DNA from: Cyanobacteria bacterium P01_F01_bin.150
GTDB taxonomy: Bacteria > Cyanobacteriota > Cyanobacteriia > CAKZMO01
Length of the DNA: 64,000 bases
Direction: 5' to 3'
Assembly (NCBI GenBank): GCA_039189765.1
Contig: JBCCYL010000001.1
Span: 64,001 to 128,000, forward strand
Shown in pieces: positions 1-43,704 of the stretch; position 1 is the stretch's first letter; every line of letters begins with the position of its first letter. The notes beneath the pieces are model-generated. The model did no database searches. It was not told the DNA's origin and worked only from the letters and a program-made list of their open reading frames with translations. Made by a program: the position numbers and the translations under genes.

Positions 1-3000
1 TGGGCTGCTGGACCGCACGGTTGAAAAATAGGCCGTGCAGTAGATTGGAGAGGTCGTTGGGTGTTGATCGTTGGGTAGAGTCAACATCTCCATCCGCCGC
101 TGGCAGAAGGGCTACAGTGGTAGCGTTTAGATCTTGTAGACACTGGCGCTGATGTTGGGGGAGGCGATCGGGGAGCAGTTGATTGGAACGAGGGTTGTCC
201 CAAAGAAGGGATTCAGGTGCAGCAAGTACGTGGAGTAAGTCCTTGTAGGCTGCAAACATATCGTCAAGGAGACAATCTGGGAAAAGATCTTCAATGGCAT
301 CCCAGTTAAAATGCAGTGCTCCGCCAATTTCTGAAACCTGATGATCGAGATAAACTTGGGATGTTTGACTGAGGCTGTAGACAATCTCGGACTGCCAGGG
401 GCGATCGCCCTTTGCCTCGCCTAAATCCTGGGTCAAAACGCTGGTGAAGACCACAGGCATTAGTGCCCCAGTGCGCTGTTGCTGACGCTGGGCTAGTTCC
501 CGCAGCACCTGCACACCGCTAACATAGCGATGTTCTAAATCTTGCCAAAGCTGATCTTGAATTCCTTGGGCTAAATCACCAAAAGACTGGTTCGCCTTTG
601 TATGAATTGCCAACAGCACCGATGAGGTAAAGTCACCCACTAATCGATTCACGTCAGGATGAAAGGGAAGACGGTTAAATAGAGTCAGGTTTAGCGTAAA
701 GCTAGACGGCTGGCTCCAAGTATTAAGAATATCCGCAAATGCCGCCAGCAATACACCAGAAGGCGTCACACCAAACTTTGCTGCCCGTTGCTTAATAGCC
801 TGCCAAGCTTCCGGAGCTAACGTACCCGATCGCCGCACAAATCGCGGATTTTCAATCCGGTCAGGGCGCTGGGCCAAGGGCAACTGAGGCGCTGGTGGCA
901 ATGTATCCAACCGCTGCTGCCAATAGTCCCAGGATTGACGATAGGTTTCGGAATCTCGAAATGCCTCTTCTGCTAGCACATAATCGCGGAAGGTTACATC
1001 AATAGGAACCTGAGGTAGCTTGGGCTGAAGCAGATTCTGGGCCAGCTCCTGAGCAATGAGTTGAGCACTCCAGGCATCTCCCATCAGCACGTCAAAGCTA
1101 ACGTGGAATCGAATACGGTCGCCCAATTCTCCATTTTGCGAGGGTAAAAGTGACGCTTGGATATCAAACAGAGGATATCGATCCGTGGGAATAATTTGAT
1201 GGGAGAGGCGATCGCGCATTGCCATCAGCTCTGTCTCGACTTGTGATGGAGGAAGCGATCGCAAATCCGTTGTCTGGATTTTATACGGCGGCACCTCAGC
1301 TAACACCCGCTGTTGCCCATCCGCCTGCACCACCACCCGCAACATATCGTGGCGATCGATTAAGCGCTGAAATGCAGATTCTAGCTGAGCCACCGTTAAT
1401 CCTACTGTCTCAATTTCTCGATAGCCGTGGGTGGAAATATTGCCCAGCTCAAAGGCCTCATTTCGCCCAATCCAGTAGGCATGCTGGATATCCGTTAAGG
1501 GGAATGGTTCGTGGCGACTGGCACGAACCGGAGTAATTTCGGGCAGCTCAACAGCAACTATATTTCTTGCTTCAAGAGATGCAGCCCCATCATTAAGGAA
1601 TTGGAGACCGTTAATTTGTTCCGTAAGTTGAGCCACCGTCGGGTACTGAAACAACAGCCGCAGAGGAATCGACTGATTAACTTGCCGACTGACCTGGCCC
1701 ATTAGCTGTAGTCCGAGCAGGGAATGGCCTCCCAGCTCAAAGAAATTATCGTAAATTCCGACCGCGTCAACTTGGAGGGTGGTTTGCCAGATATGGGCGA
1801 TCGCCTCCTCTAACTCAGTCCTCGGTGCAATGTAATCATTTTCGCTCATCCGCTCAGTCGAGGGAGACGGCAGCGCCCGCCGATTAATCTTGCCGTTAGG
1901 CAATCGTGGGAATTCCTCTAGCAGCATCACTATCCCAGGCACCATAAAGGAAGGCAGCTGTTTAGAAAGAAATCCCTGTACCTCAGCAGTAGAAGGCTCC
2001 TCCCCATCCGTTGGAATCACATAGGCAATCAGACGCTGAGACTGCAACACTTGCGCTTGCTCAGAATTGTCTTGTGGATTGGATAAAACTCGATCGACCT
2101 GAACAATGTCATCCTGAACTTGGGGATGCTGCCGCAACACCGCCTCAATTTCTCCCAGCTCAATGCGATAGCCCCGCACCTTCACCTGCTGATCTAACCG
2201 CCCAAGAAACTCAAGCTGACCGTCTGGGCGATAGCGTACGAGATCGCCAGTTTTGTAAAGCTTTTGGTCGTAGCTTAGATCCCAGGGTTCTAGGTAACCA
2301 TTTGTGGATTGCTCAGATAACTTTAAAGAACCCTGGGATCTGGCGTCTGGGCGATCCACAAATGGGTTTTGAATAAATCGCTCTTGGGTCAGTTCAGGAC
2401 GATTGAGATAGCCACGGGCTACTCCTGCTCCACCTAAATACAGCTCCCCTGGAATACCAACAGGGACGGGCTGTAAATAGCGATCGAGCACGTAGGCTTG
2501 AGAATTGGCAATGGGACGACCTATCGAGGGACTTTGGGTTTTCCGGTCCCCCTCTTGGGAGGGGCTAGGGGTGGGTTGATTTTGGATTTTGGATTTTGGA
2601 TTTTGGATTTCAGATGCATAGGATGTGTTAGACGATAGCCGTAATGCATCATTCGGGATTTTTGCAAACGTTGAATACGTTGTATCCTCTGAAGGGCCGT
2701 AGAGGTTATAAACGCTTTGAATATGAGGGCGTTCATATAGCGCTTGCACTAGTGACGCAGGCAGGGGTTCACCGGCTAGGTTGACGGTGCGGATACTGAT
2801 GGGGAGAGTATGGTGCTGAATAAGCTGGGCGATCGCACTTGGCACCGTATTAACCAACGTCACCTGATCGGCAGCAGAGAGTTCCGGCAGATCTAGAACA
2901 TTTTCGGCCAAAATAACCGAGCCGCCTGTGGTGAGGGGAAGAAAAATTTCAAATACGGATAAGTCAAAGCAAATAGAAGTTGAGGCCAAAACGCCAGCGG

Positions 3001-5365
3001 TAGACTCTGGGTCAAATGTCTCCTGTGCCCATTGCAACATGGCCACCGTATTACGATGCTCGATTGCCACCCCTTTGGGTTTGCCTGTGGAGCCAGAAGT
3101 GTAAATAACGTAGGCCAGATCGGAAGAATTATTGGTGGGTAGTAGAGAACTGGAGCGAGACTGCATGGAAATAAGTTCTTGCTCTTCGCTGTCGCTAAGG
3201 TCAATAAATGACCCCTGCCAGTTTTCAAAATTAGGTTTGGCTCCGCTGCCGATAATCATGGTCATATCAGCATCAGCAACCATAAATGCAATTCGCTCCT
3301 GGGGATAGGCTGGGTCCATTGGGACGTAGGCACCACCTGCCTTGAGGATTGCCAGAAGAGCAACAATCATTTGGGGCGTTTGGCTTTGCCATGCCTTCGG
3401 CAAACGCTCCAAATAAACCCCCACCGTCAGCTCTTCGCCGCGATTCGATGGAGAATCAATCGTTTGAATATAGTGAGCAAGTTGATTTGCCGATTGATCA
3501 AGCTGACGGTAAGTGTAAGGAATATCTTGATAAATCACAGCGATCGCATCTGGCGTACGCTGAACCTGCTGCTCAAACAACCCATGAATGGTCAGCTTAT
3601 CAGCGCTGACCTCGTTATCATAAACACGCTGGGTCTGATTCCAGTCCACCAGCAACTGCTGTCGTTCGGTTGGGGTCAATAACGATAGTAGGCCAATAGG
3701 CTGATCGGGGTTTGTGGCGATCGCCTCCAACAACTGCTGAAAATGCTCGATTAAGCGAGCAATCGTCGTCGCATCAAACAGGTCGGTGCTGTACTCTATC
3801 TGACCGCTAATTCCGGCCTCTGAATCCTGTAAATTAAGCCGCAGTTCGTATTTAACCGTGTGATTGTCCAGCGGTAGGCGCTCCACCGTCATATCTTTCA
3901 ATGCCAACGGTTTTACGGTGGCAAGCTGGAGATCAAACTTAGCTTGGAACAGCGGCGACATCTGGCTAATATTCCGCTCTGGATTTAGCACTTCCACGAG
4001 CTTTTCAAAGGGCAATGCCTGATAGGTAAAAGCCCCTGCCACGGTTTGCTTCACACGCTGGAGATAATCCCGAAAGCTGGGATTGCCAGTGCCATCTAGC
4101 CGCAACACTAGCGTATTGACCAGCAGCCCAATCAATCCTTGGGTTTCGGTACGATCGCGATTAGCAATATCCGTACCAATTGTCACATCATCCTGCTGGC
4201 TGTATCGATGCAGCAAAATGCCAAAGGCTGCTAGCAGCAGAATAAACAACGTTACCCCTTCCTTTGCCGCCAGCTTTTTCAACGCTTGAGACTGGACTGG
4301 GGAGATGGCGATCGCCCTCTGGTCACCCCGATAGGTAGGCACAGGGGGATAGGGCCGATCCGTTGGCAGTTGAAGCATTGGCACATCGGCAAGCTGCTTA
4401 GTCCAATAGGCAATATGGTCCTCCAGCACCTTCCCCTGTAACCACTGCCGCTGCCACACGGCCCAATCACCATATTGAATTGCCAGTTCAGGGAGGGGCG
4501 ATTGCCGTGCACCACTCCCGTTAGCGTCATCATCCAAATAGGCGTTATACAGCAGGGTCATTTCCCTCAGAAATACCCCCACTGACCACCGATCTGAAAT
4601 AATATGATGCACCGTAATCAACAGCACATGGTCTTGTTCACTGACCCGCAAAAGCTCCAGCCGCAGCAGAGATTGGGTTAAATCAAACGGCTTTTGGGCA
4701 GCGGCGATCGCTAAACACTCAAGGGAATTTTGGATTTTAGATTTTGGATTTTGGATAGAGGGTTGGGGTGTTAGATCCCAGGGTTCTTGGTGATGATTTG
4801 GCGATTCTAAAGAGATTTGGCTAGAACCCTGGGATCTGCGCGTCAGATCGACTTCCGTAATTTTTAATGTAATAGGTTCGGCTGGCAACACCACCTGAAT
4901 CGCCTGTTGCCCTCGAAGTCCCGAAGCATCCAGGGCAACCCCATCACTCCCCAACTCCCCAACTCCATCACTCCCCAACTCCCCAACCTTCACCACCGTC
5001 CGCAATGTCTCATGACGTTGCACAAGCTCCGTCAACGTCTGCTCCAACACGGCAATATCCAACGCTCCCTTTAACCGCAGCGCACTAAAAACGTTGTAGG
5101 CAAAGCTGTCAGGCTCTAGCTGTTGGATAAACCAAAGCCGCTGCTGGGCAAACGATAGGGGAGTGGGGCGATCGCCCGATCGCCGTTTAATCTTGCGAGA
5201 TGCCTGAGCCTTATTACTCGTCTTGTTACTTGTTTGGCGTTTAGCTTGACGCTGCTGTAAGCGCTTTTCAAACAGCGCCCGCTGTTCCGGAGATAGATTT
5301 GCTAGCTGCTTTTCAAGCTCGGCAGATGCTAGATTTGTGGACACGTTACCCTTTTGCTTGGTCAT
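1..5365 (-). CDS. NRPS, 3'-truncated by window edge: C-A(Ala)-T-Cy(heterocyclization)-start of next A
   Basis: Not in the ORF track (no stop inside the window). ATG at 5365, just after the upstream stop (5369-5371). Manual translation of segments in this frame gives PLSFAQQRLWF, HHIISDRWS (C), AYVIYTSGSTG, FDLSVFE/VNTVP/NLAGE/NLYGPSEDTTY (code DLFNNALTYK, Ala-type), FELGGHSL (T), then PFPLTDIQHAYWIGR, FDVLMGDAWS, VGDFTS, PVVFTS (Cy motifs). The frame is consistent down to base 2. Confidence 0.92.
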   Translation of the reverse strand, partial: MTKQKGNVSTNLASAELEKQLANLSPEQRALFEKRLQQRQAKRQTSNKTSNKAQASRKIKRRSGDRPTPLSFAQQRLWFIQQLEPDSFAYNVFSALRLKGALDIAVLEQTLTELVQRHETLRTVVKVGELGSDGVGELGSDGVALDASGLRGQQAIQVVLPAEPITLKITEVDLTRRSQGSSQISLESPNHHQEPWDLTPQPSIQNPKSKIQNSLECLAIAAAQKPFDLTQSLLRLELLRVSEQDHVLLITVHHIISDRWSVGVFLREMTLLYNAYLDDDANGSGARQSPLPELAIQYGDWAVWQRQWLQGKVLEDHIAYWTKQLADVPMLQLPTDRPYPPVPTYRGDQRAIAISPVQSQALKKLAAKEGVTLFILLLAAFGILLHRYSQQDDVTIGTDIANRDRTETQGLIGLLVNTLVLRLDGTGNPSFRDYLQRVKQTVAGAFTYQALPFEKLVEVLNPERNISQMSPLFQAKFDLQLATVKPLALKDMTVERLPLDNHTVKYELRLNLQDSEAGISGQIEYSTDLFDATTIARLIEHFQQLLEAIATNPDQPIGLLSLLTPTERQQLLVDWNQTQRVYDNEVSADKLTIHGLFEQQVQRTPDAIAVIYQDIPYTYRQLDQSANQLAHYIQTIDSPSNRGEELTVGVYLERLPKAWQSQTPQMIVALLAILKAGGAYVPMDPAYPQERIAFMVADADMTMIIGSGAKPNFENWQGSFIDLSDSEEQELISMQSRSSSLLPTNNSSDLAYVIYTSGSTGKPKGVAIEHRNTVAMLQWAQETFDPESTAGVLASTSICFDLSVFEIFLPLTTGGSVILAENVLDLPELSAADQVTLVNTVPSAIAQLIQHHTLPISIRTVNLAGEPLPASLVQALYERPHIQSVYNLYGPSEDTTYSTFAKIPNDALRLSSNTSYASEIQNPKSKIQNQPTPSPSQEGDRKTQSPSIGRPIANSQAYVLDRYLQPVPVGIPGELYLGGAGVARGYLNRPELTQERFIQNPFVDRPDARSQGSLKLSEQSTNGYLEPWDLSYDQKLYKTGDLVRYRPDGQLEFLGRLDQQVKVRGYRIELGEIEAVLRQHPQVQDDIVQVDRVLSNPQDNSEQAQVLQSQRLIAYVIPTDGEEPSTAEVQGFLSKQLPSFMVPGIVMLLEEFPRLPNGKINRRALPSPSTERMSENDYIAPRTELEEAIAHIWQTTLQVDAVGIYDNFFELGGHSLLGLQLMGQVSRQVNQSIPLRLLFQYPTVAQLTEQINGLQFLNDGAASLEARNIVAVELPEITPVRASRHEPFPLTDIQHAYWIGRNEAFELGNISTHGYREIETVGLTVAQLESAFQRLIDRHDMLRVVVQADGQQRVLAEVPPYKIQTTDLRSLPPSQVETELMAMRDRLSHQIIPTDRYPLFDIQASLLPSQNGELGDRIRFHVSFDVLMGDAWSAQLIAQELAQNLLQPKLPQVPIDVTFRDYVLAEEAFRDSETYRQSWDYWQQRLDTLPPAPQLPLAQRPDRIENPRFVRRSGTLAPEAWQAIKQRAAKFGVTPSGVLLAAFADILNTWSQPSSFTLNLTLFNRLPFHPDVNRLVGDFTSSVLLAIHTKANQSFGDLAQGIQDQLWQDLEHRYVSGVQVLRELAQRQQQRTGALMPVVFTSVLTQDLGEAKGDRPWQSEIVYSLSQTSQVYLDHQVSEIGGALHFNWDAIEDLFPDCLLDDMFAAYKDLLHVLAAPESLLWDNPRSNQLLPDRLPQHQRQCLQDLNATTVALLPAADGDVDSTQRSTPNDLSNLLHGLFFNRAVQQP
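2277..2341. repeat. 65-nt inverted-repeat element, long form (14-bp arms, 37-nt spacer)
   Basis: AGATCCCAGGGTTC-N37-GAACCCTGGGATCT. Other copies: 4773-4837, 11567-11631, 16496-16560, 20144-20208, 31562-31626. Confidence 0.95.
3380..3403. mobile_element. 24-nt double-hairpin small dispersed repeat (SDR-like)
   Basis: TT-GGC-TTT-GCC-A-TGCC-TTC-GGCA-A. Copies with the same fold: 6482-6505, 17371-17394, 22181-22204, 37028-37051, 38539-38562, 40544-40567. Each adds about 8 codons relative to comparable empty sites. Confidence 0.8.
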
Positions 5366-5368
5366 GGT

Positions 5369-8300
5369 CTACTTCTCCCCCAACTCTGCCGCTACTTCAT
5401 CCGGTGATAGGGCTTGAATTTCCGCTAGTAATGCTGCCATATCTTCAGCATCTTCACCGCCTTCATCGTTGTCCGCCCCCTCATTATCCGTTGCCATTTG
5501 CGTTTCCACGAGTTGTGCAATCCCAGCAATAGTAGGTGCTTCAAATAGAAGGCTCTGCATTGGTAGCTCCACCCCAAACTGTTCTCGCAGCCGTGCGATC
5601 GCCTGAATAGCCAACAGCGAGTGACCACCTAACTCAAAAAAGCTGTCCTCGATTCCCACCTGTTCAATGCCCAGAAGTTCTTGCCAGATGGTGGCGATCG
5701 CCCCCTCCATCTCAGTACGCGGTGCCATATAGGCCGCTGATAGCTGAGGACGCTGGTGCTGGCTCTGCTTTTTCAATGTGCCCGGCGGTGCAGTATCTTT
5801 AGCGATTAGCCCTTCTGGCTGAACTCGAATCCACTGTCGTAACCGCGCATCCAAATCCCCTTTGGAAACAACCACTTGAGCCGTATTTCCCAATGCTAAA
5901 ACCCGTTGAGTAGCTTTCCAGACTTCTTCAGCCGTCAAGGTAAATGGGGCAAGCTGCTGTTCCAATCGACCAGACATTTTGCTCTGTAACTCTGCCTGAT
6001 CGCCTACACTTTCTGCCAAGGTTGCATTATCCATACTATGAAACCCATCCCAATTAACGCTAATCCAAGGAACAGATTGGGACGCAGATTGATCATGGGC
6101 GATCGCATCAATCACATGATTCGCTGAACTGTAGGTACCTAGCCCTAGTCCCCCAACAATGGACGATAGAGACGATTGCAGCAAACAAAAATCGGGACGA
6201 CGCTCGGCCAACACTTGAGTGAGAACTTCTAAGCCATAAATTTTAGTTCTTAAACTGTACTCCCATGAAGCTTTATCTCGCTGTTGCAGCAGTGACATAG
6301 ACTGTTCATTGCTCATCGGAGTCGAGTAAAACACCCCATGAATTTCGCCATGCTTAGCCTCAGCCTGGGTGATCGCCTCCTGCATCTGTTGCAAATCAGT
6401 GATGTTAGTCTCGATAAATACCCCCCTTAGTCCCCCCTTAGTAAAGGGGGAGACCGGAGGCTCGGCCCCCTCCCCTTGATTTTCGCGTAGCGTGTCCGTA
6501 GGACGTAGGGAGGGATGGGGTGGGGTGGTTCCAGGACAAATAATCGAAAGCTTGGCATCCAAGGATTCAATCAAAAACGGAGCGATCGCTTCCCCTAACC
6601 CCTGCTCCATTTGCCCCACAACTAAATAGTGCCCCTGGGGACGAAGGGCAATCGCAGGCTGGACCTGGTCGTCCACTTTTATAGACGTGTATATCTGCTG
6701 CCATCGATGTCGTCCTCTGTAGGCTACCAGGGCATCGACAGGAGGCTGGATTAACTCCTGAGCTAGAGTTTGAAGCATCGCATCAGAATATTTATCACGA
6801 TCTAGATCGATACAGTTGCAGCCCAACGTGGGATACTCCTGGGGAATCACCTGACATAGCCCCAGCAGACTTGCCTGATTAGGATTTAAGGATTCCGTTC
6901 CCGTTACGTCGTGGACATTTTCTGTCACAACAGTAATTTGTACTGGCTGCTGCTTCAGAAATGCCGTTAGAGCTTGGGGAAGCGATCGCAGTCCGTAAAA
7001 CCCAAACCAGTCTTCCATCCCGTGCCACAGGTATAGAATGCGATTGGGCAATAGCTCCCGCAACTCCAGATCATCCAGTAGCTCTCGATAACCATCAGGC
7101 GACTCAGGATTAACGGAAAAAGTACGATACTCAACCTGATCAAACGGTTCTCGCCCTGGAATCACCGTTACCACTTCGTGACCTAGCCCCTGAATCCGTT
7201 GGCCCAACTGAATTCCTAAATCACTACTGTCTGCACTATTTGTTACAACCAGCCAAATCTGTCGATCCACTTGACCCGGAACTGAACGAGGCGATACCCG
7301 CTGCCAGCTAGGAGAGTACAGCCAATCTGCACTGTCGGCCTGAATTTTAACTTGCGATTGCTGCATAGTCGCCGTTACTGCACCTGTATCCTGTGATGTT
7401 GACCCAGGCAGCAGCGACTCATCAGGTTCAATCCAGTAACGCTGCCGTTCAAAGGGATAGGTGGGTAAAGGGACACGCGATCGCCGCTCATTCTTGTAAA
7501 ATCCATCCCAATTTACAGATACACCTTCCAACCAAAGCTGTCCCAACGTCCTCATCAAGTGGAAAATATCAGATTGTTTTTCTTTGGGATGGCGAAGAGA
7601 AGTAAGAATTGGGGAGTTGGGGAGTTGGGGAGTTGGGGAGTTGGGGAGTTGGGGAGTTGCGCCACTCCGGTCCCCCTCTTGGGAGGAGTTAGGGGTGGGT
7701 TCTTCTGCCTTCTGCCTTCTGCCTTCTGCCTTCTGAACACCTTCCACCTTTTGGCTCTGGACAAACGTTGTAAGTGTTCTGCTGGGGCCAACTTCGAGGA
7801 AAAGATGGGAGACATCTTGTTGGAGAAGGTTAATCCCATCGGCAAAACGAACAGGGGAACGGAGCTGTTGCCCCCAGAAACTAGGGTTAGTGGCGTCCTC
7901 ATCTGATAACAAGGTTCCGGTAATGTTGGAAAGCAGAGGAATGGTGGGGGCTTGCAGAGCAACACCTTTGATGACATCGGTAAAGGGTTGAACTGCGTCC
8001 TCCATTAAATGGGAATGGAAGGCATGAGAAGTGTGTAGAAGACGGTGGGAGATATTGTCTTTTTCCAAACGTGTCTGGAGTTTGGCGATCGCTTTTTCAC
8101 TCCCTGACACCACACACAGCTTCGGTGCATTTACCGCCGCTAAATTTAGTCCGTCTGTCAGATATGCTTCAATTTCGTCGGCTGCCACCGAAACTGCGAC
8201 CATACTTCCAGTAGGCTGAGCCTGCATTAGCTGCCCCCGTTTGGCAACAATTTTTAGAGCATCATCAAAGGTGAACACGTTGGCGATCGCCCCTGCAACA

Positions 8301-22977: not shown

Positions 22978-25900
22978 TTATCGTCGCCTCCTTCTCTGTC
23001 GTCCTGAAGTCTGGTTAGAACTCTGGGGAACAGAAGAGCGAGACGGTAAGCTTTGATTTGTCCCTTGGTTTGCCCCTGAGTTTGCCCCTTGGTTTGCCCC
23101 TTGGGCACTACTTTTCTGCTGATTTACTCGATTTAACACCTGGTCTAACTGCTGCTGATTTAACCGAGCAGCTTCAAAATCAGAAGGCGTGTACTCTTTT
23201 GCAGTTGCGCTATCGTTCTGCTCTAGTCGAGTCTGGCCATATCGCAGCAGCGATCGCAGCACAGACATATACCGCTGCACAAGCGGCTCAATATCCTGTT
23301 GGGCATACTGTTCTCTGCTGTAATTCCATTGTGTTTGCAATTGACCGTCCCGCACAAAGCTGTTGATTTCCAGCGCATATAGGCGGGGCATATTCGGGTC
23401 CACGGTAGTCCCTGGCGAGATATTTGAAATCCCCTTCACCATAGAGTCCGCCGCAGAACGCAAATCTAACTGGCCCAAATAATTGAACTTAATCTTGGGA
23501 GGTCGAGGCAACGTCACCGACTGACGCACATTAGTGTCAGGATGAAGATAGCGAAGCAACCCGTACCCTGTACCATTTTTAGGAATCTGACGGAGCTGTT
23601 CCTTAACTGACTTTAAAGCGTCTCCGGGTTGTCCTCCTCGATTTAGCGTCAGCATCACTGGAAATATGGACGTAAACCATCCCACCGTCCGCGATACATC
23701 CAGCCCTAAATTATGACTGTCATTGATGTGATCGAAAACATCACGTCCGTATCCTTCCAAATCAATAACTAAAGAATCCGATTGCCCTAGGCCTATCGTC
23801 TGACTCCATTCCATCGAACGTCCTAACGTCTGTACTAAAGCTGTCAGCATCACCTCGTCCACACGGGTATTAAATACAGACGGCATTTGGGTCAAAAGAT
23901 TCTGAGTCTCGACGTTATCCAATGTGGCGGTTACTTGCTCCGCTGTGGATTGTAGAGGCTGCACCATTGGACTTTGAAGACTTGCATTCTGATAGGTTTG
24001 AGAAATTTCCTCCGCTAATTGCTGCCAATAGCTTCTTTGCTCAAGGATTTGTGATGATTGAGCGTGATGAACTAGCGCCTCTCCCCATGCTTGGAACGAT
24101 GTGGTTTTAGGAGGGAGAGCAATAGTCTCTGCCCCGTCTTTGCCTATCTCACTTTGATCTTTGCGATTATCCTGCTGCTGCCGATAAGCCAACTCCAAAT
24201 CCGCCAGCAATACTCGCCACGACAGTCCATCTACAACTAAATGATGAACAATAATCAATAAACAAGGCTTCTGATTTGCTCCCCTCTGGAACAATACACA
24301 GCGACACAGGCAAGCAGATAAATCGAGGCTAGCTTGGAGATCGTTAGAGAGGGCGGCGATCGCTTCCTCCTGCCCCGCCAATGGAAGCCCCGTCAAATCC
24401 TCTACCAAGAACGTATCTTCACCAGACCCAACCGTTCCGTAGGTTGGATTAGCGACAGCGTAACCCAACAGAGTGTCTTGCGCTGTAGATAGCTTTGTTG
24501 GGTTTCCTTCGTCAACCCAACCTACGTGGCTGAATCGTAATCGCAATGCATCATGGTGCTCAACCATTTCAGTCCATGCCTTAGCAAGATACTCTGTCTC
24601 AATTTCAGACTGTAGTTCCAGTAATAATGATTGGTTGTAATGATGGGGATTAGGTAGATTTTGCTCAAAGAACCAGTGATAGATCGGTAGCCACTCTTGA
24701 ACCCCTGCGATCGCCCCCTGCTCCGGCATAGCCATTTGAGACGGACCCGATTCTGCTGCCACTGCCGCCAATTCTGCCACCGTTTGATGCTGGAATAGCT
24801 GGCGCGGCGTAATCGTCAAACCCGCTTGCTTTGCTCTAGCAATAATTTGAATACTCAGGATGGAGTCTCCACCAAGTTCAAAGAAATTATCGCAAGTGCC
24901 AACTTTAACCCCTAATACCTCTGACCAGATATCAACCAATACCTTTTCAGTATCGGTCTGAGCTTCTTGTCTACTCTGGCCTGAATTGCGACTTTGAGCC
25001 TCCCAATCAGGCGTTGGTAGAGCCGTACGATCGATCTTGCCATTTGCCGTCAGTGGAAATGACTCAACAGGAACGATCGCCGCAGGAATCATGTAGGAAG
25101 GAAGACAATCCTTAAGGAAGGATTTTAGATTTTGGATTTTGGTGGAGGAGTTGGGGAGTTGGGGAGTTGGGGAGTTGGGGAGTTGGGCGTTGAGCGGTGG
25201 GACATGCCGGTCCCTCTCTTGGGATGGGTTAGGGGTGGATGGATTTTGGATGGTCTTTTGCTGAGACGCAAACGTAATGTGGGCGACCAGATGGGAACCA
25301 CGTTGATCATCGTGCTGAAGTGTGGCGATCGCCCCCTCCACCTCAGGATGACGCACCAGCGTTGCTTCAATCTCACCCAGCTCAATCCGGAAACCGCGCA
25401 GCTTAACCTGATTGTCGATTCGTCCCAGGTACTCAATCGTGCCATCTGGACGGTAAAAAGCGCGATCGCCTGTCCTGTATAAAGTTAAGGAGTTGGAGGG
25501 TTGGGGAGTTGGAGAGTTTAAATTTTGGATTTTAGATTTTGGATTCTGGACATTTTGTCCCTCTGCTCCCTTGCTCCCTTGCTCCCTTGCTCCCCTGCTC
25601 CCTTGCTCCCTTGCTCCTTCTGCCTTCTGCCTTCTGCCTTCTGCCTTTAAAAACGGATTCGGAATAAAGCGATCGCCCGTTAAATCAGGTCGATTATGAT
25701 ACCCTCGCGCCACCCCCGCGCCACCGATATAGAGTTCGCCTGGAATACCAACCGGAACTGGATTAAGGTAGCGATCAAGAATATAAAGCTGAGCATTCGC
25801 TATCGGGCGACCAATCGGTACATTGCCTGACGAACTGCTCGCTGATGAAGCCGCAGACGCATCATATACGCAGCATCCCACCACCGTTTCCGTCGGCCCA

Positions 25901-28761
25901 TACTCATTTATCAACCGAGTGTTGGGGGCATGCGATCGCCAATAGGCCAAATGCGCCTCAGTTAATGCTTCTCCACCCAAAACAAACGCATTTGCTCCGA
26001 CGTAGGATGTGTTAGGCGACAGCCGTAACGCATCATCAGATTTAGTGCTGCCCAATAACTCCAGAACCTTCAAATGAGCCGGAGTCAATTTTGCCAAACT
26101 AAACGATTGCCCAGTAGGCTGGGCGATGCCTACCATTTGTCCAATTTTTGAAGTTTCAGAAATTCCGACCAAGAGAGCTTCGGATAAGGCTTCAATTTCA
26201 TCTTCTTCCGGCAACATCGTTACCGTCTGACCCGAGACCAATGGCAACAGCAAACTTGTAATCGTTGCATCAAAGCCAATGGAAGACTGCACTGGAGCAC
26301 CCGTTCCCTCTGTTACTCGATATTCCTCTCGACTCCATCTCAGATAATTCACCAACCCGCGATGGGTAATCATCGTCCCCTTAGGCGTCCCGGTAGAACC
26401 AGATGTGTACATCACATACGCTAAATGCTGACTTATAAGATGACAGCCTAAATTTGTAGATGGAAATTTACGAATAACATCTTGTTCAACATCCAATCGC
26501 GTCTGAGAAATGTCGCCCCACACTTTAGAAGGACTGGCGGAATCCACAATCACGCGGCAACACTCCGCATCCGTCACCATAAACCGGAGGCGATCGTCCG
26601 GCAATGTTGGGTCCAACGGCAAATAGGCCGCTCCAGTTTTCAGTACAGCTAAGATCGCAACTAACAGATTAGGAGTACGTCCCAGACAAATCCCCACAAT
26701 ATCTCCAGAACCAATCTTGTGATAACGGAGATAATGAGAAAGCTGATTAGCTTTGATGTTCAGCTCTTGGTAAGTCATCCCCTCTAACCCCTCTTTAACA
26801 AGAGGGAGAACCGGACTTCCACTTCTCTCCTTGGTAAGGGGGGAGGGAGGGAGGGGAGACGAGGCGATCACATCCACTTGCATCATCCTTACCGCCATAG
26901 CCCCAGGATTTTGTTCAACCTGTTCCTCAAATAACGAACAAATGGAATGGGGTAAATACTCAGGCACCGACGTTTGATTCCACTCCACCACAAGGTGATG
27001 CTGTTCATCTGCGGTTAAAATATCAACTTCAGATAATCGCTGGTCTGGATTGGTAACAATGGATTCCAGCAAGACTTTAAAGTGGCCCAACATGCGCTGG
27101 ATGCGATCGCCATCAAACAGCTCAGTGCAATATTCCACCACTGCCAGCAGACCATCATCCCGCTCAATCGTATGCCAGGTGAGGTCAAACTTTGTTACCT
27201 TGGGCGCTAACCACTGCTGCTCTAGCGTCAATCCTGGTAGCTGTAGTTCCGGTCGAGCCGCATTTTGCATCTGATAGGCAGCGTTCTGGAACTGGAACAT
27301 CACCTGAAATAGAGGATTATGGCTTAAACTGCGCTCAGGCTGAAGCTCCTCTACCAGTTGAGCAAAGGGTAAATCTTGATGCTGAAAGGCCGATGACGCA
27401 GCCGATCGCACCAGCCGCACTACCTCGCGAATAGTCGGAGGTGCGCTTTTGGATAGGTCTTGAAGCCGTGAACGGACCACTACGGAATTTACGAAAAAGC
27501 CGATTAAGCCCTCTAGTTCAGTCCAGTTGCGATTGGCTGTGGGCACTCCAACCACAATGTCATCTTGATCGGTGTAGCGATGCAGCAAAATTTTGAACGC
27601 CGCCAGCAGCGTTATAAAGACCGTAGTCCCTTCCTGCTGACTTAGTTCTTTGATTTGATTGAGCAAATCCAGGGGCAACATTAGTGATGCAGTAGCGCTG
27701 TCAAAGGTTTGAGCCGGAGGCCGGGGGTGATCGGTGGGCAACTCCAGCATGGGGATATCGTGGAGTTGCGATCGCCAGTATTCCAACTGCTGCTCTCGCT
27801 CATGCCCCTGCAACCACTGCCGCTGCCATGCCGCAAAGTCAGCATACTGGATAGGCAATAGACCTAACGGAGATGGTTGTTCTTGACTGAAGGTACGATA
27901 CAAGGCTGACAATTCTTTTAGCAAGATGCCACGGGACCAGCCATCGCCGACGATGTGGTGGAGAGTGAGAAGGATAGTGTGTTGGGGAGTTGGGGAGTTG
28001 GGGAGTTGGGGAGTTGGGGAGTTGGAGAGTCGGGGAGTTAGAGAGGTTCGGTCCCCCTCTTGGGAGGGGTTAGGGGTGGGTTCCTCCGATTTTAGATTTT
28101 GGATGTTGGATTTTGGAGAGGTGGCCTGGCTACCTTCTGCTCCTTCTGCTCCCTCTGCCTTCTGCCTTCTGCCTTCTGCCTTTTGGACGGATCGAATAAC
28201 GCTAACTCGTAAAAGAGGCGGTTGGGTGAGGTCGAAGGGTCGGTTGATTTCCGCTTGGGTGAGGCGATCGATTTCTTGAGCTTGAGCTTCAAGGGAGAGC
28301 GGTCGGATATCCACCACGGGCATAGAAAAAGCTGTGGGTTGAACCGTGAGTTTGGGCTGACCCTTTTCTTCTCCAAATGAGGTCCGCAATACTTCATGAC
28401 GCTGGACAATTTCAGTAAAACTTTTTTGCAGAATCGTAAGATCTAAATCCCCAAAAAGATGCCACTGCATGCCAATGTTGTAGGCAGGATTGTTGGGGTC
28501 AAGCTGATAAAGAAACCATAGGCGCTCTTGGGCGTAAGATAGGGGATAATCGTCTAAATTCTGCCGTTTTTGAATAAAATTCTTACGAGCTTGAGGATGC
28601 TCATCAGTATCAGGCTTATCAGCATCAGACAGGTTAGATATCAAACCAGAAACAGACAGCCCCTTTTGCTTGAGCTGCTGGATAAAAAAGGTCCGCTTTT
28701 CCGGTGGCAACGAATTGATTCGCCGCCGTAGCATCTCTAATTGTTGCCCCTGATCACTCAT
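22978..28761 (-). CDS. NRPS C-A(Asn-type)-T-E
   Basis: HHIVGDGWS (C). A code DATKVGEVGK (Asn-type). GGDSIL (T before E). HHLVVDGLSW, EGYGRD, SRTVGWFT, PKNGTGYG, FNYLGQ (E). Confidence 0.93.
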   Translation of the reverse strand: MSDQGQQLEMLRRRINSLPPEKRTFFIQQLKQKGLSVSGLISNLSDADKPDTDEHPQARKNFIQKRQNLDDYPLSYAQERLWFLYQLDPNNPAYNIGMQWHLFGDLDLTILQKSFTEIVQRHEVLRTSFGEEKGQPKLTVQPTAFSMPVVDIRPLSLEAQAQEIDRLTQAEINRPFDLTQPPLLRVSVIRSVQKAEGRRQKAEGAEGAEGSQATSPKSNIQNLKSEEPTPNPSQEGDRTSLTPRLSNSPTPQLPNSPTPQHTILLTLHHIVGDGWSRGILLKELSALYRTFSQEQPSPLGLLPIQYADFAAWQRQWLQGHEREQQLEYWRSQLHDIPMLELPTDHPRPPAQTFDSATASLMLPLDLLNQIKELSQQEGTTVFITLLAAFKILLHRYTDQDDIVVGVPTANRNWTELEGLIGFFVNSVVVRSRLQDLSKSAPPTIREVVRLVRSAASSAFQHQDLPFAQLVEELQPERSLSHNPLFQVMFQFQNAAYQMQNAARPELQLPGLTLEQQWLAPKVTKFDLTWHTIERDDGLLAVVEYCTELFDGDRIQRMLGHFKVLLESIVTNPDQRLSEVDILTADEQHHLVVEWNQTSVPEYLPHSICSLFEEQVEQNPGAMAVRMMQVDVIASSPLPPSPLTKERSGSPVLPLVKEGLEGMTYQELNIKANQLSHYLRYHKIGSGDIVGICLGRTPNLLVAILAVLKTGAAYLPLDPTLPDDRLRFMVTDAECCRVIVDSASPSKVWGDISQTRLDVEQDVIRKFPSTNLGCHLISQHLAYVMYTSGSTGTPKGTMITHRGLVNYLRWSREEYRVTEGTGAPVQSSIGFDATITSLLLPLVSGQTVTMLPEEDEIEALSEALLVGISETSKIGQMVGIAQPTGQSFSLAKLTPAHLKVLELLGSTKSDDALRLSPNTSYVGANAFVLGGEALTEAHLAYWRSHAPNTRLINEYGPTETVVGCCVYDASAASSASSSSGNVPIGRPIANAQLYILDRYLNPVPVGIPGELYIGGAGVARGYHNRPDLTGDRFIPNPFLKAEGRRQKAEGAREQGSRGAREQGSKGAEGQNVQNPKSKIQNLNSPTPQPSNSLTLYRTGDRAFYRPDGTIEYLGRIDNQVKLRGFRIELGEIEATLVRHPEVEGAIATLQHDDQRGSHLVAHITFASQQKTIQNPSTPNPSQERDRHVPPLNAQLPNSPTPQLPNSSTKIQNLKSFLKDCLPSYMIPAAIVPVESFPLTANGKIDRTALPTPDWEAQSRNSGQSRQEAQTDTEKVLVDIWSEVLGVKVGTCDNFFELGGDSILSIQIIARAKQAGLTITPRQLFQHQTVAELAAVAAESGPSQMAMPEQGAIAGVQEWLPIYHWFFEQNLPNPHHYNQSLLLELQSEIETEYLAKAWTEMVEHHDALRLRFSHVGWVDEGNPTKLSTAQDTLLGYAVANPTYGTVGSGEDTFLVEDLTGLPLAGQEEAIAALSNDLQASLDLSACLCRCVLFQRGANQKPCLLIIVHHLVVDGLSWRVLLADLELAYRQQQDNRKDQSEIGKDGAETIALPPKTTSFQAWGEALVHHAQSSQILEQRSYWQQLAEEISQTYQNASLQSPMVQPLQSTAEQVTATLDNVETQNLLTQMPSVFNTRVDEVMLTALVQTLGRSMEWSQTIGLGQSDSLVIDLEGYGRDVFDHINDSHNLGLDVSRTVGWFTSIFPVMLTLNRGGQPGDALKSVKEQLRQIPKNGTGYGLLRYLHPDTNVRQSVTLPRPPKIKFNYLGQLDLRSAADSMVKGISNISPGTTVDPNMPRLYALEINSFVRDGQLQTQWNYSREQYAQQDIEPLVQRYMSVLRSLLRYGQTRLEQNDSATAKEYTPSDFEAARLNQQQLDQVLNRVNQQKSSAQGANQGANSGANQGTNQSLPSRSSVPQSSNQTSGRQRRRRR
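24438..24526. repeat. GTAG-type REP inverted doublet (family 1)
   Basis: CGTAGGTTGGATTAGCGACAGCGTAACCCAAC ... GTTGGGTTTCCTTCGTCAACCCAACCTACG. Other doublets: 36927-37072, 40470-40588, 45080-45171. Singles: 10634-10664, 30244-30274, 37090-37120. Confidence 0.88.
26001..26034 (+). repeat. GTAG-type REP (family 2)
   Basis: CGTAG-GATGTGTTA-GGCGACAGCCG-TAACGCATC. Copies at 41481-41514 and 2617-2650 (GTAG changed to ATAG). Read on the coding strand as DALRLSPNTSY-like peptides. Confidence 0.85.
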
Positions 28762-28887
28762 TTCCTACCCTGTAATTCCACAACGTATTATGCGATCGCG
28801 CCATGTCCCCTTCCTAATTCTTGGTAACGGATTACACTATCTTTAATCCGCTCTGCAAGATGCTTACAAAAATCTCATTAAATTTAC

Positions 28888-29949
28888 TTAAGCGACTACC
28901 ACCGGCTTTTGGGCACAGTTGTCCTGTAGCTGCTTCAGATAGGGCAAACTCTCCATCACGTAGTCAAAATCCTGAACAAAATCGATAAGACAGGCAACTT
29001 CCGTAATCCCAGTCTGACTCAATTCATCCACAAAAGGTAGACAGCTTTCGGGAGTCCCGATGAGCGATCGCCCCTGCATAAATCCTTCCACCCCGAACAA
29101 TAATAAACTATCAATATCATCCTCAGAAAAATCTTTCAAGCTAATAGTCATTCCCATGCCCTTAGCTAGATTTTCTAACAAATCATAGTGAGTTTTTAAG
29201 TAATCACAAAAGGGTCTTCTCACTTTTTCCTTAACAGTTTCAATGTCTGCTCCCAAAAAAGTATGGAGCATTAGTGAAACCGTCTTTGTTTTTGGATCAT
29301 GCCCATATTTTTCCAAACACTTATGATAGAGCTTTATCTTTGGTTTAATGCTGTCCAAATCTCCGGTTAAAAGTGAGGTCAAAACATTGGCTCCCATCTT
29401 CCCTGCTTCCATAAAGGTTTCATTGGATTGGCAGGTAATCCATAGCGGCAGCGTTGACTGAATGGGATTGGGCAAGGTTTTGACAGTAAAGGACTTACCC
29501 GTAGCGTCCTGCTGACTAATCGCTTCGCCAGACCAAAGTCGCTGGAGCGTATCAATCCCTCTCCACATGGTGGCTTTACGGCTAGCGTGGGGCGCACGGG
29601 ACAGAATAAAGTCATCAACGGTCCACCCTGAAGCAACCGCAACTGCCGCCCGTCCATTGGACAGATTATCGACGACTGCCCATTCCTCCGCAATCCGCAC
29701 CACATCATGCAGCGGAATCACTAAACTACCAGCCCGCAATTGAATATTTTCAGTAATCATTGCCAATGCCGTACTCGTCAATGCGGGGTTGGGGTAAAGC
29801 CCCCCAAATGCGTGAAAATGGCGCTCCGGGGTCCACACTGCAGTAAAACCATTCTGATCCGCAAACTTAGCGGTTTCCAACAGCATTTTATATTTATTAG
29901 AATCGGCAACCGACCCATCACCATCAAAATAAAATAAGCTAAATTTCAT
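28888..29949 (-). CDS. Luciferase-like (LLM class) flavin-dependent monooxygenase of the natural-product (MupA/Atu3671-like) type
   Basis: MKFSLFYF start (ATG 29949, preferred over the track's 30009), AKFADQNGFTAVWTPERHFHAFGGLYPNP, RIAEEWAVVDNLSNGR, SLIGTPE, EVACLIDF. Confidence 0.9.
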   Translation of the reverse strand: MKFSLFYFDGDGSVADSNKYKMLLETAKFADQNGFTAVWTPERHFHAFGGLYPNPALTSTALAMITENIQLRAGSLVIPLHDVVRIAEEWAVVDNLSNGRAAVAVASGWTVDDFILSRAPHASRKATMWRGIDTLQRLWSGEAISQQDATGKSFTVKTLPNPIQSTLPLWITCQSNETFMEAGKMGANVLTSLLTGDLDSIKPKIKLYHKCLEKYGHDPKTKTVSLMLHTFLGADIETVKEKVRRPFCDYLKTHYDLLENLAKGMGMTISLKDFSEDDIDSLLLFGVEGFMQGRSLIGTPESCLPFVDELSQTGITEVACLIDFVQDFDYVMESLPYLKQLQDNCAQKPVVVA

Positions 29950-30117
29950 TATTTTTTCCCTTTCAATATCACTAATCTTAATTAGGTACAAACTCAACCT
30001 ATAAAACAATTTATTTAACTAATCACTCATATTCCAAAATCCAAAATTGACCCTCTCCTAGCCCCTACCAGGAGGGGAACCGAACCATCCAAAATCCAAA
30101 ATCTAAAATCCAAAATT

Positions 30118-33100
30118 CTAAGTCTGCCCTCCTTGTTCCTGAAGCTGGGCTGTGACATCATCCAAATCCATATTTTCGACTTGTGATAGAAGGTCAGCAA
30201 TTTCATTCTGTTCCTGCTCGGTTGTTAATTGTGGGGGAGGGCTGTTGGGTTTCCTATCGTCAACCCAACCTACGGAGTCGGGGTCTTCGTCAGTGCCACC
30301 TTCTACCTTCTGCCTTCTGCCTTCTGCCTTTTGAAAGTCGTCGCTGAGGTTCTCCTCAATAATCTTGGCAATCCCTGCCACTGTGGGCGACTCAAACAAA
30401 AATTCTCGCATCGGTAAGTCTACATTGAATTCGTTGCGGAGGCGAGATACCGCTTGAATCGCCAAAAGTGAATGACCGCCCAGCTCAAAGAAATTATCGT
30501 GAATTCCCACCTGCCCTATTCCCAGGAGTTCTTGCATAGCCTCGGACACCGCCGTTTCAATGGAATTGCGAGGGGCAACATAGGTGGTGGAAAGCTGAGG
30601 TCGCTGGTGAGCATTGGCCGTGCCGTTATTGTTAAAACCATCTGGATCCAAATCCTTGGTAACGGCTAGCTTGCGAGCATCAATAATCCGCTGAGGTAAG
30701 TCAGTGGGAGATGTGGCAATCTGCATTGGTCCAGGCAGGCCAGACGATTGAATAATCTGGGAAAAGAGGCGATCGCATACGTCATCAACTTCACTCGGCG
30801 TCATCGCCAAATCCACTAATGCCGATCCGGTTATGGCACTCTCTGAATCCACTTCATCATCCCGGCAGGCATCCCAATTAACGCTTAGCCACTGGGGACC
30901 TGTATCTAGCATTGCTGAACGATTTCGCTCTGCTGCCAACGCATCCATAAAATAGTTGGCTCCGCTATAGGCCGAGAATCCCACACCACCCACAACCGAT
31001 GATAAGGATGATTGCAGCCAAAAGAACTCTATGGCCCGATTGCCCAAAGCCTGTTCCAGACTCAACAATCCCTGCATTTTAGATTTAAACTGTTTAGCGA
31101 TCGCCTCAGGCGTTAAATCAGCAATCAGACAGCTCGACTGCCCTCCCATCACTCCAGCATGGACGACGCCCTGAATCGGGCCAAGGATCTCTTCTGCTTG
31201 GGTCAGGAGCGATCGCACCCTATCCGTATCGGTCAAATCCGCACTAAAAAACTCGTATTCTACCTCCTGAGCCGCCAACCCCTGAAGCCGACGAATACAA
31301 TTACTCACCGGATCGCGCTGCCCATGTACCCCCAACCACGGCTCCCACTGGTCCGGCATAGGCATCCCTTCGCGACCAAGCAAAATCAATTTAGCCTGGT
31401 GGGTCTGGGCAAAGTACTGGGCAAAGTACAAACCAAGACCGTCAACTAGATCGCCAGCAATCAGAAGAGTTGGGGAGTTGGGGAGTTGGGGAGTTAGGGA
31501 GTTGGAGGCGTAGGGATTTTGGATTTTAGATTTTGGATTTTGGATAGAGAGTTGGGACGTAAGATCCCAGGGTTCTTGGGAATGCTTTGGCTGCTTTAAC
31601 GAGGTTTGGGCAAAACCCTGGGATCTGGACGCGCTTTCATCTATCTTTAGTAGAAGCGGCGTGTAGCTCTGAACCCACCGACAAAACCCTCGATAGGCAA
31701 CCACGCACGTTCTATCTGCCGTATTGGAGGGTAAAGTGATGTCGGTGAGAATCGAAGCGATCAGGGCTTTTGGAATAGAGCCATTGCCCGATGGACTATT
31801 AATGTCAATCACTTGGCAGCGGATGTGGGGATATTCCTGGGGAATCACCTGGCAGGCTCCTAGAAGAGGAGCGTTGTGAGGGTTTAAGTCTTCTGTTCCT
31901 GTAACATCGTGGATTGGAGGTGTTAGAACCGTGATAGTAACTTCAGAGGGTGTGGATAAAGCTTTTTCAGCCGTTGCACCGTTGCCATTGCCGTTGGAGA
32001 TTGACGCTGTACTGTTGGCCGCTTGCTTAGCCATAATGCGATCGACAGCTTGAGCCAAAAATATCAGGCTACTAAATTGGGAAATGCCTTCTTCACTAGG
32101 ATCAGCCTGCGCTGATGTGTCTTGATTATTCACCAGTGACCAGCCATGAATAATCGTCTGAGGCAGTCGATTCGAATTTTTCAAGGCCGCTATCAAATCG
32201 TGATAGTCATCAGGACTGGCTGGATTAATTTGGTAAGTGTCTGCATCAAGTTGGGTAAAGCAACCGCCCTTTTGAACAACAATTACAGTCTGCTGGGTTG
32301 ACTGTAACAGGGAAATAAGAGATTGCATTAGTTGTAATTCAGACTTAAACACTAACCAATGTTCAGGAGAAGCCACTCGCCCTTCAGACAATGGCAATGC
32401 CTCCCGCTGCCAGGATGGCTGGTAAAACCACTGACTTATATCGGGATTTTTAGTAGCGGATTTAGCTGATACTGCGTCTTGGGATGCGGATGTGGACGAT
32501 TGCAGATCAACCCAGTAGCGCTGACGCTCGAATGGATAGGTCGGCAGCGGAACACGCCTACGCTGCTCATAGGCATAAAATCCAGCCCAGTCAATATCCG
32601 TACCGTTAAGCCAGAGCAGCCCCAGCGTCTTAAGAATAAGCGCATGATCGGGCTGGGATTCTTGGGGATGACGCAGGGATGTAAGCACAACACCAGGACG
32701 TTCTGCCTGTGCTCGCTTAGCCAGTGTTGCCAGGGTCCGGCTGGGTCCCACCTCTAGCAAGACAGGATAATCGGACTGCCACAGCTTCTCAATGCCATCG
32801 CCAAAGCGCACCGTTTGTCGAATATGTTGCCCCCAGTAGTTGGGATTCGTCGCCTCATCTGCCGTAAGCCAGGTCCCAGTGACATTGGACATCATGGGAA
32901 TAGAGGGAGGGGTGAGTTTAACCTGACTAACCTGTTCCACAAACTGGGGGACAACGGGAGCCATCATGGACGAGTGGAATCCATGGGATGTCTTCAGAAT
33001 CCGTGCATTTAATCCCTCTTTTTGGCAGCGCTGCTCCAGTTGGACGATCGCCCCCTCCGGCCCAGACACCACACAAAGCTCTGCCCCATTGACCACCGCC

Positions 33101-35352: not shown

Positions 35353-35487
35353 AGGATAGTGAGTAAATTTTAGATTTTAGATTTTAGATTTTAGATTTTG
35401 GATTTTATAAAGGGGAGTTAGGGAGTTAGGGAGTTAAGGAGTTTTGAATTAGCATTTCTGCCTTTTGCCTTCTGCCTTCTGCCTTTA
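35353..35487. repeat. Intergenic tandem arrays (TTTTAGA)n, (GGGAGTTA)n, (CTTCTGC)n
   Basis: Directly visible between the two PKS genes. Confidence 0.9.

Positions 35488-43700
<8,213 letters not shown>

Positions 43701-43704
<4 letters not shown>

Follow-up and report, generated by a model that had tools for sequence, protein, structure and literature searches.

A two-length hairpin repeat, probably of the REP/REPIN type and linked to RAYT genes in related genomes, lies in frame within a cyanobacterial PKS/NRPS cluster

We analyzed a window of 64,000 nt from Cyanobacteria bacterium P01_F01_bin.150 (contig JBCCYL010000001.1, assembly GCA_039189765.1; the source genome is labeled G000 below), in which a hybrid polyketide synthase/non-ribosomal peptide synthetase (PKS/NRPS) cluster carries twelve copies of a short hairpin repeat (Table 1). 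A preliminary description of this DNA had reported six 65-nt copies, with conserved 14-nt arms around a strongly diverged, free spacer of exactly 37 nt, and had proposed, among other readings, a non-autonomous mobile unit resembling the doublets of repetitive extragenic palindromic (REP) sequences known as REPINs. Searching the window for the two arms separated by 30–45 nt returned five exact matches to AGATCCCRGGGTTC-N37-GAACCCYGGGATCT, with 0 expected from 100 shuffles; the sixth reported copy has one mismatch in its right arm, and the spacer is 37 nt in all six. When the arms were searched for on their own, 24 were found in the window against about one expected. Six extra copies have the same arms around a 5-nt loop; five of these are perfect palindromes, and the sixth (at 42185) carries three changes, including one compensated pair. 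The resulting number of 12 copies compares with 1.06 expected (P = 1.6e-9). A relaxed search of the window, allowing up to four mismatches per arm, gave no further full copy and a single partial extra arm at 20194-20224. This degenerate third arm, directly after the copy at 20144, reads AGAACCCCGGGATC TCT GCCCCCCGGGATCC and might be left over from a former tandem unit. Each of the 12 copies is in frame within a giant minus-strand open reading frame that stays open, and every frame of the cluster is intact despite the inserts.

Table 1. The PKS/NRPS cluster and the hairpin copies within it (positions in the window, nt).
Feature	Position	Strand	Context
Hybrid PKS/NRPS cluster	2..55915	-	Pfam matches: fatty-acyl-AMP ligase/ACAD/ACP starter, four PKS open reading frames, three NRPS open reading frames, luciferase-like monooxygenase
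65-nt form (15-bp stem, 35-nt loop)	2277..2341	-	NRPS adenylation (A) domain, between A6 region and YKTGD; read as RSQGSLKLSEQSTNGYLEPWDL
65-nt form	4773..4837	-	NRPS of the 2277 copy, ahead of or within first C-domain match; in 115-nt composite 4724-4838 with (GATTTTG)n heptamers
33-nt perfect hairpin	8922..8954	-	KS-AT linker of PKS, in frame
65-nt form	11567..11631	-	A6-A7 loop, third A domain of 4092-aa NRPS; position 8 mixed (A with C)
33-nt hairpin	14693..14725	-	In frame, 4092-aa NRPS; read as SDPRVLEEPWDL
33-nt hairpin	16214..16246	-	AMP-binding_C match of second module, in frame
65-nt form, G/C arms	16496..16560	-	A6-A7 loop, second A domain; (CTGCCTT)n heptamers flank
65-nt form, G/C arms	20144..20208	-	A6-A7 loop, first A domain; partial extra arm 20194-20224
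65-nt form, one right-arm mismatch (AAACCC...)	31562..31626	-	PKS, between KR structural and catalytic parts; 115-nt composite 31513-31627
33-nt hairpin, three changes	42185..42217	-	In frame just after PKS KS
33-nt hairpin	48097..48129	-	PKS, between DH and methyltransferase regions, in frame
33-nt hairpin	50056..50088	-	Just after KS; same alignment columns as 42185 in paralogous PKS

We searched the whole G000 assembly, which is metagenome-assembled and fragmented (10.64 Mb in 350 contigs; estimated contamination 4.7%), allowing up to two mismatches per arm and counting an arm as unpaired when it had no partner within 500 nt. There are 231 left arms, 49 of them unpaired, and about 176 paired copies. 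A histogram of spacer lengths, a check proposed in the preliminary description, shows two discrete classes, of 5 nt (78 copies) and of 36–38 nt (95 copies: 11 of 36 nt, 66 of 37 nt, and 18 of 38 nt), plus one copy each at 6, 35, and 39 nt and six singletons of 67–328 nt, rather than a continuous genome-wide spread. The majority of copies sit between genes, on many different contigs. Module duplication, which had been considered as a possible sole origin, therefore cannot explain the family, though it may have placed some of the window copies that stand at homologous module positions. Taking open frames as stop-to-stop frames without gene calls, 36 of the 176 copies lie in frames of at least 300 residues, though such frames make up 66% of the genome (P = 1.6e-35). 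Frames of at least 1000 residues, which cover 19.8% of the genome, hold 24 copies; giant genes are thus much less depleted than ordinary ones, and the window, with 12 of 12 copies intragenic, is the exception in the family. This amount of stop-free sequence in frames of at least 1000 residues is also an unusually large giant-gene share. Elsewhere in G000 the intragenic hosts are an alpha/beta hydrolase, AAA_35, PMT_2, and CHAT-CHASE2 proteins, an SbmA-like ABC transporter, a pyridine-nucleotide oxidoreductase, a kinase-AAA-GAF protein, TPS-secreted proteins, and another NRPS. As in the window, copies among these are in frame and leave the Pfam domains of the host genes intact.

Long copies often stand in tandem arrays (for example on contigs C51 and C60), with alternating arm orientations and with periods of ∼98 nt (in the congener G003), 78–101 nt (C60), and ∼141–143 nt (C51), so that periods that are not multiples of three occur. 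Their linkers are of two kinds, the ∼35-nt loop and an outer stretch of 13–80 nt, which is HIP1-rich. About 30 short copies form the centre of a ∼88-nt unit that has its own imperfect terminal inverted repeats, AATGNCNCTGACWTAAGC (for example C3:127724-127815, C52:2441-2530, and C200:1702-1790 in G000). The outer-end motifs of this unit also occur alone, 107 and 74 times, one case on C108 encloses a different core, and the hairpin core is likewise found without the outer ends.

By folding, the stem is 15 bp long, AGATCCC(A/G)GGGTTCT with its complement, so that the loop is 3 nt (33 nt in total) or ∼35 nt (65 nt in total), rather than 5 or 37 nt. Folded as DNA, the 33-mer reaches −16.4 kcal/mol (z −7.6) and the six 65-mers −13.5 to −19.1 kcal/mol (z −4.2 to −6.7). 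The two arms covary: there are 19 compensated double changes against 22 one-sided changes in the short class (shuffle mean 1.1, maximum 6 in 1000 shuffles), and 48 against 39 in the long class (shuffle mean 23, maximum 31), although these counts overstate the number of events because copies descend from one another. Eight different positions of the stem show compensated changes; in the long class, for example, position 8 pairs A/T in 44 copies, G/C in 43, and otherwise in 10. This arm covariation fits a hairpin. The compensating change noted earlier in both arms of the copies at 16496 and 20144 is the G...C variant, but the copy at 11567 combines A on the left with C on the right and is uncompensated. 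The spacers turned out to be neither free nor all strongly diverged: those at 11567 and 20144 agree at 32 of 37 positions, those at 4773 and 31562 lie within a common 115-nt composite, and 66 oriented copies of the long class share a weak consensus, T.ACATAATCTTT.G..TTG.GCAA.ACACTTTTGCA, flanked by GCAA and GGCCCC. The 5-nt centre of the short class is found either way round with respect to the flanks (TTAAA 20, TTTAA 9, among 36 confidently oriented copies), and a cross-genus alignment shows a recurring ...YCGC just inside one arm.

We looked for the exact pattern in 41 related genomes, G000 included, and found it in six of them: 118 times in G000, 14 in G003, three in G015, two in G005, and once each in G011 and G014; a reversed control pattern matched in none of the 41. 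The arms stay conserved from genome to genome, in contrast to the spacers. Two arrays of 65-nt units in G003 (four and five copies, period 98 nt) flank a gene encoding a 189-residue HUH/Y1 protein, which matches PF01797 (Y1_Tnp) and NF047646, “REP-associated tyrosine transposase” (RAYT), the latter with 77 bits against a cut-off of 80 bits. A profile built from 24 members of its clade matched E. coli TnpAREP (4er8) at E = 6.8e-9; a single-sequence search with the RAYT against solved structures gave no match. The clade has invariant HUH (PNHYH) and Y..H.NP motifs. Relatives of this gene adjoin the same arms in G014 and G015 and in the marine metagenome-assembled genomes L055 (33-nt form, on both sides) and L109 (65-nt form), so that the check for a flanking HUH/Y1 gene suggested in the preliminary description comes out positive in relatives. 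On a contig of G003 (C202, locus L008), arrays of 65-nt units also bracket a Uma2-family gene.

A scan with one genome per species found at least 589 RAYT relatives, and we examined the best 80, which are mostly cyanobacterial. Counting stems of at least 12 bp with a loop of 3–4 or 28–43 nt, 73 of these 80 loci have a hairpin of the 33- or 65-nt geometry within 400 nt of the gene (42 short-type, 36 long-type, and 49 with hairpins on both sides). Stems of exactly 15 bp occur in 62 of the 85 short and 104 of the 147 long hairpins, and 191 of all 232 stems start with AGA; the loop is 3 nt in 76 of the 85 short hairpins, the commonest long loop is 35 nt (48 of 147), and total lengths have their modes at 33 and 65 nt. 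Up to 400 nt from the RAYT gene there are 3.43 hairpins per kb, versus 0.21 per kb further out. The arm sequences are lineage-specific (AGATCCCCGACTTCT in Nostocales, AGAAACCGGGTTTCT in Microcoleus), with the geometry unchanged. Short- and long-loop types cluster in a quick tree of the RAYT proteins, and near the window’s clade both occur; since kin share labels and both types are found there, we make no claim of co-evolution. Two relatives with 33-nt hairpins (L100 and L105) lie on contigs labeled Sphingobacterium and Gammaproteobacteria, and could be mis-binned cyanobacterial DNA or cases of horizontal transfer.

G000 itself contains nine full-length Y1 genes, four of which lie 103–714 nt from a copy (on C3, C51, C76, and C86). 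The C3 gene is preceded by a 33-nt hairpin, which lies 67 nt upstream of the gene start and is thus placed similarly to those in the RAYT clade; relatives of this type of Y1 gene in other genomes showed no such hairpins. On C51 (1700-4200, locus L135), an array of three plus four copies flanks a HicA/HicB-like gene pair and adjoins a Y1 gene (DHVH...YIRHQEQHH).

Taken as a whole, the repeat is probably a REP/REPIN-type hairpin scattered by a RAYT, with the intragenic copies being tolerated survivors. The adjacency to RAYT genes in relatives, the discrete spacers, and the dispersed intergenic copies all support the non-autonomous REPIN-type unit proposed earlier. The hairpin would form on single-stranded DNA, where a RAYT, a HUH/Y1 tyrosine transposase of the TnpAREP type, would bind, cut, and re-join it. 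Its action would scatter copies and build tandem arrays beside the RAYT gene and a few other small genes, and selection would keep most copies out of genes. The 12 window copies would then be survivors that landed in, or were converted between modules into, permissive linkers and surface loops of the PKS/NRPS proteins. The copies themselves, their two discrete sizes, the covariation of the arms, the depletion from genes, the in-frame translation, and the adjacency to RAYT genes in relatives are observed; movement by the RAYT, the single-stranded hairpin intermediate, and any current activity in G000 are inferred.

The family resembles REP/REPIN-RAYT systems (E. coli TnpAREP, 4er8; Pseudomonas REPINs; Bertels and Rainey, 2011) in being a palindromic hairpin of ∼10^2 mostly extragenic copies with compensatory stem changes, in occurring as singles, as inverted pairs around a spacer, and in arrays, and in flanking, in relatives, a small HUH/Y1 homologue of TnpAREP. 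It differs in having no GTAG or CGTC tag, a perfect 15-bp stem, and two geometries only (33 and 65 nt), in the motifs of its RAYT, which are those of a subclass reported to lack REPs, and in that no cognate RAYT was found in the G000 assembly. Moreover, each “REP” of the 65-nt form is a bare 15-nt arm and not a hairpin of its own. E. coli bacterial interspersed mosaic elements (BIMEs) are REP arrays in alternating orientation with fixed linkers. The tandem arrays here are alike in their alternating arm orientations and two linker kinds, but their sequences are unrelated and the host belongs to another phylum.

Among cyanobacterial repeats, the small dispersed repeats (SDRs) SDR1-8 of Nostoc are said to have been described by Elhai in 2008. 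The accessible text of PMC5861425 gives SDRs as 21–27 nt long and reported only in Nostocaceae; the 33- and 65-nt forms differ from these lengths, and the Nostocales form AGATCCCCGACTTCT may be an SDR. According to the available parts of Di Nocera et al. (2013; PMC3733652), GTAG-tagged REPs occur in Anabaena, Nostoc, and Cyanothece; intragenic REPs, and REP dimers encoding 20–30 residues, are described there as well. Their families GTAG-12, GTAG-15, and GTAG-16, as far as they are described there, are likewise small hairpins, some nested in longer palindromic repeats, and the way in which GTAG-15 dimers are nested is similar to the ∼88-nt outer unit of the short copies; the GTAG tag that defines those families is absent here. 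The text of Nunvar et al. (2010) has no mention of cyanobacteria or of the four cyanobacterial genera looked for, and neither the arms of this family nor those of the Nostocales and Microcoleus forms were found in the literature searched, apart from four unrelated chance matches. A scan of the window with Rfam 15 gave no match at the gathering score.

Within the cluster, the inserts are translated as loops of 11 or 22 residues. The 65-nt form reads RS(Q/R)GS, 12 variable residues, and EP(W/R)DL, and the 33-nt form reads P, S, or T followed by 11 residues. Four A domains carry a 65-nt copy in the loop that separates the A6 region from YKTGD; in the fifth A domain of the cluster, the same loop holds heptamer and nonamer tandem repeats and no hairpin. 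Such repeats, which are in frame, also border several of the 65-nt copies. With plus-strand units (CTGCCTT)n and (GATTTTG)n, they lie at 16561-16600, 4724-4772, 31513-31561, and 25440-25700 (one translation is KAEGRRQKAEG...), and their peptide motifs recur in loops of an unrelated oxidoreductase and of homologues from other samples.

We examined the reading frame of intragenic copies in frames of at least 300 residues, with the copy more than 60 residues from the frame start, a set that keeps 21 of 28 short and 9 of 19 long copies (frames of at least 150 residues). One frame is used in 18 of the 21 short copies (two others are of the RSQGS type and one of the IPGF type), and the RSxGS...EPxDL frame in all nine long copies. 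Since four of the six frame/orientation combinations of the palindrome are stop-free, this bias toward a single frame is strong, although the independence of the counts is weakened because some copies are paralogous duplicates. The consensus of the ∼88-nt unit is open in the dominant short-copy frame only, and the “DLN” flank is kept in 7 of 18 copies, so this unit partly explains the bias of the short copies. In the long class overall, 49 of 66 copies are open in the RSxGS...EPxDL frame, the highest number for any frame. The intragenic arms are also far better conserved than the surrounding coding DNA (93–100% versus 61–68% in the flanks).

Both inheritance and mobility seem to apply to the window copies. 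Copies that occupy homologous positions in old paralogous modules could be inherited. Yet the arms of the A-domain copies are identical at 13–14 of 14 positions within flanks that are 61–68% identical over 300 nt, and the hairpins at 42185 and 50056, both just after a KS domain, differ at only 3 of 33 positions in two PKS genes of much lower identity. The spacers of the copies at 11567 and 20144 (whose arms agree at 27 of 28 positions) are far more alike than their A-domain flanks (68% identical), indicating that the element is younger than the module duplication, or was converted. The copies at 4773 and 31562 share the 115-nt composite of heptamers and element although their protein contexts are not homologous, one being an NRPS C-domain region and the other a PKS KR linker. 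Comparison of the two paralogous PKS genes (35488-43704 and 43701-51596) gave 42–67% identity in almost all 150-nt windows, and no high-identity tract ending at a copy was found in this pair; module swapping at the copies is therefore unsupported there. Contigs from the probable source DNA sample, aligned to 11001-21000, break at copies.

Several observations weigh against a RAYT-scattered REP/REPIN-type repeat. Searches of the G000 assembly for a RAYT of the G003 clade found none, the best matches being 24–29% identical, and a loose tblastn search of G000 for a hidden RAYT fragment gave nothing convincing; as the ends of the 350 contigs are often close to copies, the gene may have escaped assembly, or been lost. 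A GTAG tag, which classical REPs carry and TnpAREP reads, lies within 14 nt of the RAYT-flanking hairpins in 5 of 85 cases on the 5′ side and 2 of 85 on the 3′ side, so the element would work like a REP/REPIN without being a classical GTAG-REP; some long copies in G000 are followed by TTGCGTAG, from which the flank consensus differs. The RAYT itself (NHYH, FQ, YIHLNP) appears by its motifs to fit subclass 2.1, without the C-terminal extension of that subclass. Quentin et al. (2018; PMC6006769), in the portions available, give the signature of subclass 2.1 and report no REP-like sequences near its genes, and the available part of Bertels et al. (2017) names Group 4 as the RAYT group common in cyanobacteria. 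No target duplication was recognisable at the 12 window copies or in the flank consensus. For empty sites, we compared orthologues of the ABC transporter and the oxidoreductase, each with a 33-nt copy, from relatives and from a large protein collection, but the closest are 57–69% identical with the copy in hypervariable loops, and no clean gap or target duplication could be read; among the joints listed for the source-sample contigs on 11001-21000, none skips just one copy, and contigs cannot show rare variants. Because ∼30 short copies sit inside the ∼88-nt unit, a second route of spread, of the type of miniature inverted-repeat transposable elements (MITEs), is possible. Finally, the strong frame bias, for which the ∼88-nt unit accounts only in part, and the excess conservation of the arms are not predicted for a purely selfish, decaying insert.

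The ∼88-nt unit, with its outer inverted ends, and the arms themselves, which resemble terminal inverted repeats, would also suit a MITE, that is, the remnant of a deleted insertion sequence with 14–15-bp ends, moved in trans by a DDE transposase. Bacterial MITEs (Correia/NEMIS, RUP, and the cyanobacterial Nezha) are similarly short, non-coding, and numerous, with inverted ends, and occasionally lie in frame. We nevertheless consider this origin improbable: the hairpin core occurs alone without the outer ends, neither a target duplication nor a parent insertion sequence was recognised, and among the unpaired arms listed in this fragmented assembly no pair was noticed bracketing a gene-sized insert. 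The 33-nt form is a stem and a 3-nt loop only, too small for such a remnant, and the same geometry is tied to RAYT genes at 73 of 80 loci. The conservation of the arms above their coding flanks, and across genomes while spacers differ, could instead reflect a host-serving site on double-stranded DNA, as proposed for E. coli REP/BIME, in which two near-palindromic 15-bp boxes bind a dimeric protein (a nucleoid protein, gyrase, or a regulator) and their spacing sets the helical phase. Each arm is indeed nearly palindromic in itself, and the difference between the two spacings, 32 bp, amounts to about three helical turns; yet the compensated double changes point to pairing between the arms rather than two independent boxes, copies show no positional relation to promoters or gene ends and lie within coding regions, and no binding protein for the boxes was identified. 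We regard this as quite improbable as the primary explanation, while it is compatible with a RAYT-spread element that was co-opted secondarily.

A role in RNA, with the stem-loop ending or stabilising transcripts, or slowing ribosomes at megasynthase domain boundaries, is in our view very improbable. The 15-bp stem is strong, the window copies lie in inter-domain linkers and loops, and Di Nocera et al. (2013; PMC3733652) argue, in the part of that paper available, that many REPs act as RNA; but the window has no Rfam match and its 12 copies no T-run after the stem, the palindrome can fold on both strands alike, and tolerance alone would also give the placement in linkers. That one frame serves 18 of the 21 short and all nine long intragenic copies might suggest that the peptide (RSxGS...EPWDL, or that of the short form) is selected as a linker or recognition motif, with intergenic copies as its decayed pieces. 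Such a coding module is scarcely credible given that 140 of the 176 copies lie outside frames of at least 300 residues, that nucleotide conservation extends to silent positions and perfect palindromy, that some array periods are not multiples of three, and that RAYT genes are associated with the repeat.

A broader proposal builds on the RAYT-scattered repeat. The family might belong to an undescribed, widespread class of REP-RAYT systems (in cyanobacteria, with relatives in Chloroflexota and Planctomycetota) that has no GTAG and whose RAYT reads a 15-bp AGA...TCT stem in two geometries, and its intragenic copies might also be kept intact, by RAYT- or arm-guided conversion or by selection, for a role at megasynthase domain boundaries, such as an anchor for module exchange or the pacing of translation. 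We consider the conjunction of these claims speculative and rather unlikely. The in-frame intragenic habit is not without precedent, since intragenic REPs are known and palindromic elements in Rickettsia were reportedly described by Ogata in 2000. In those cases, as here, palindromes lie in frame in intact genes; there they encode 11–30 extra residues. They differ from the Rickettsia elements in that their hosts are mainly PKS/NRPS and giant multidomain proteins, not replication or repair proteins, and in that one frame dominates; the likeness is one of behaviour only, with no relation of sequence or lineage, and the repeat is not a member of that group.

The density of copies in one PKS/NRPS cluster, their single reading frame, and the excess conservation of their arms are of moderate specialist interest. 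A large RAYT-like clade, by its motifs of a subclass without reported partner repeats, is here tied to a repeat of strict geometry, which offers a clean substrate for the biochemistry of hairpin reading without a GTAG guide. Selfish hairpins, 12 of them in one cluster, can live in frame within PKS/NRPS genes. For the annotation, alignment, and engineering of such genes, the added loops point to permissive sites, and the repeats cause assemblies to break; arm conservation above that of catalytic-domain DNA, combined with a nearly single frame, makes a testable question.

We also considered two other repeat systems and dropped both: CRISPR, since the “spacers” are alike within an array and no cas genes are in view, and integron attC sites, since no intI is in view and the units are too short for gene cassettes. 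Other repetitive DNA is present in G000. At C34:59285-59340 and C164:16600-16667 (also C82:1-62), the right arm of a 33-nt hairpin appears to be interrupted by an element with inverted ends CCTCCTAAGAAACACGACGTG..., which looks like an insertion sequence that landed in the hairpin. At C5:94200-95150, a second RAYT-like gene (DHFH...YIHINP) has a different repeat, GGTGCATTACGC..., on both sides, which suggests a separate REP family in the same genome.

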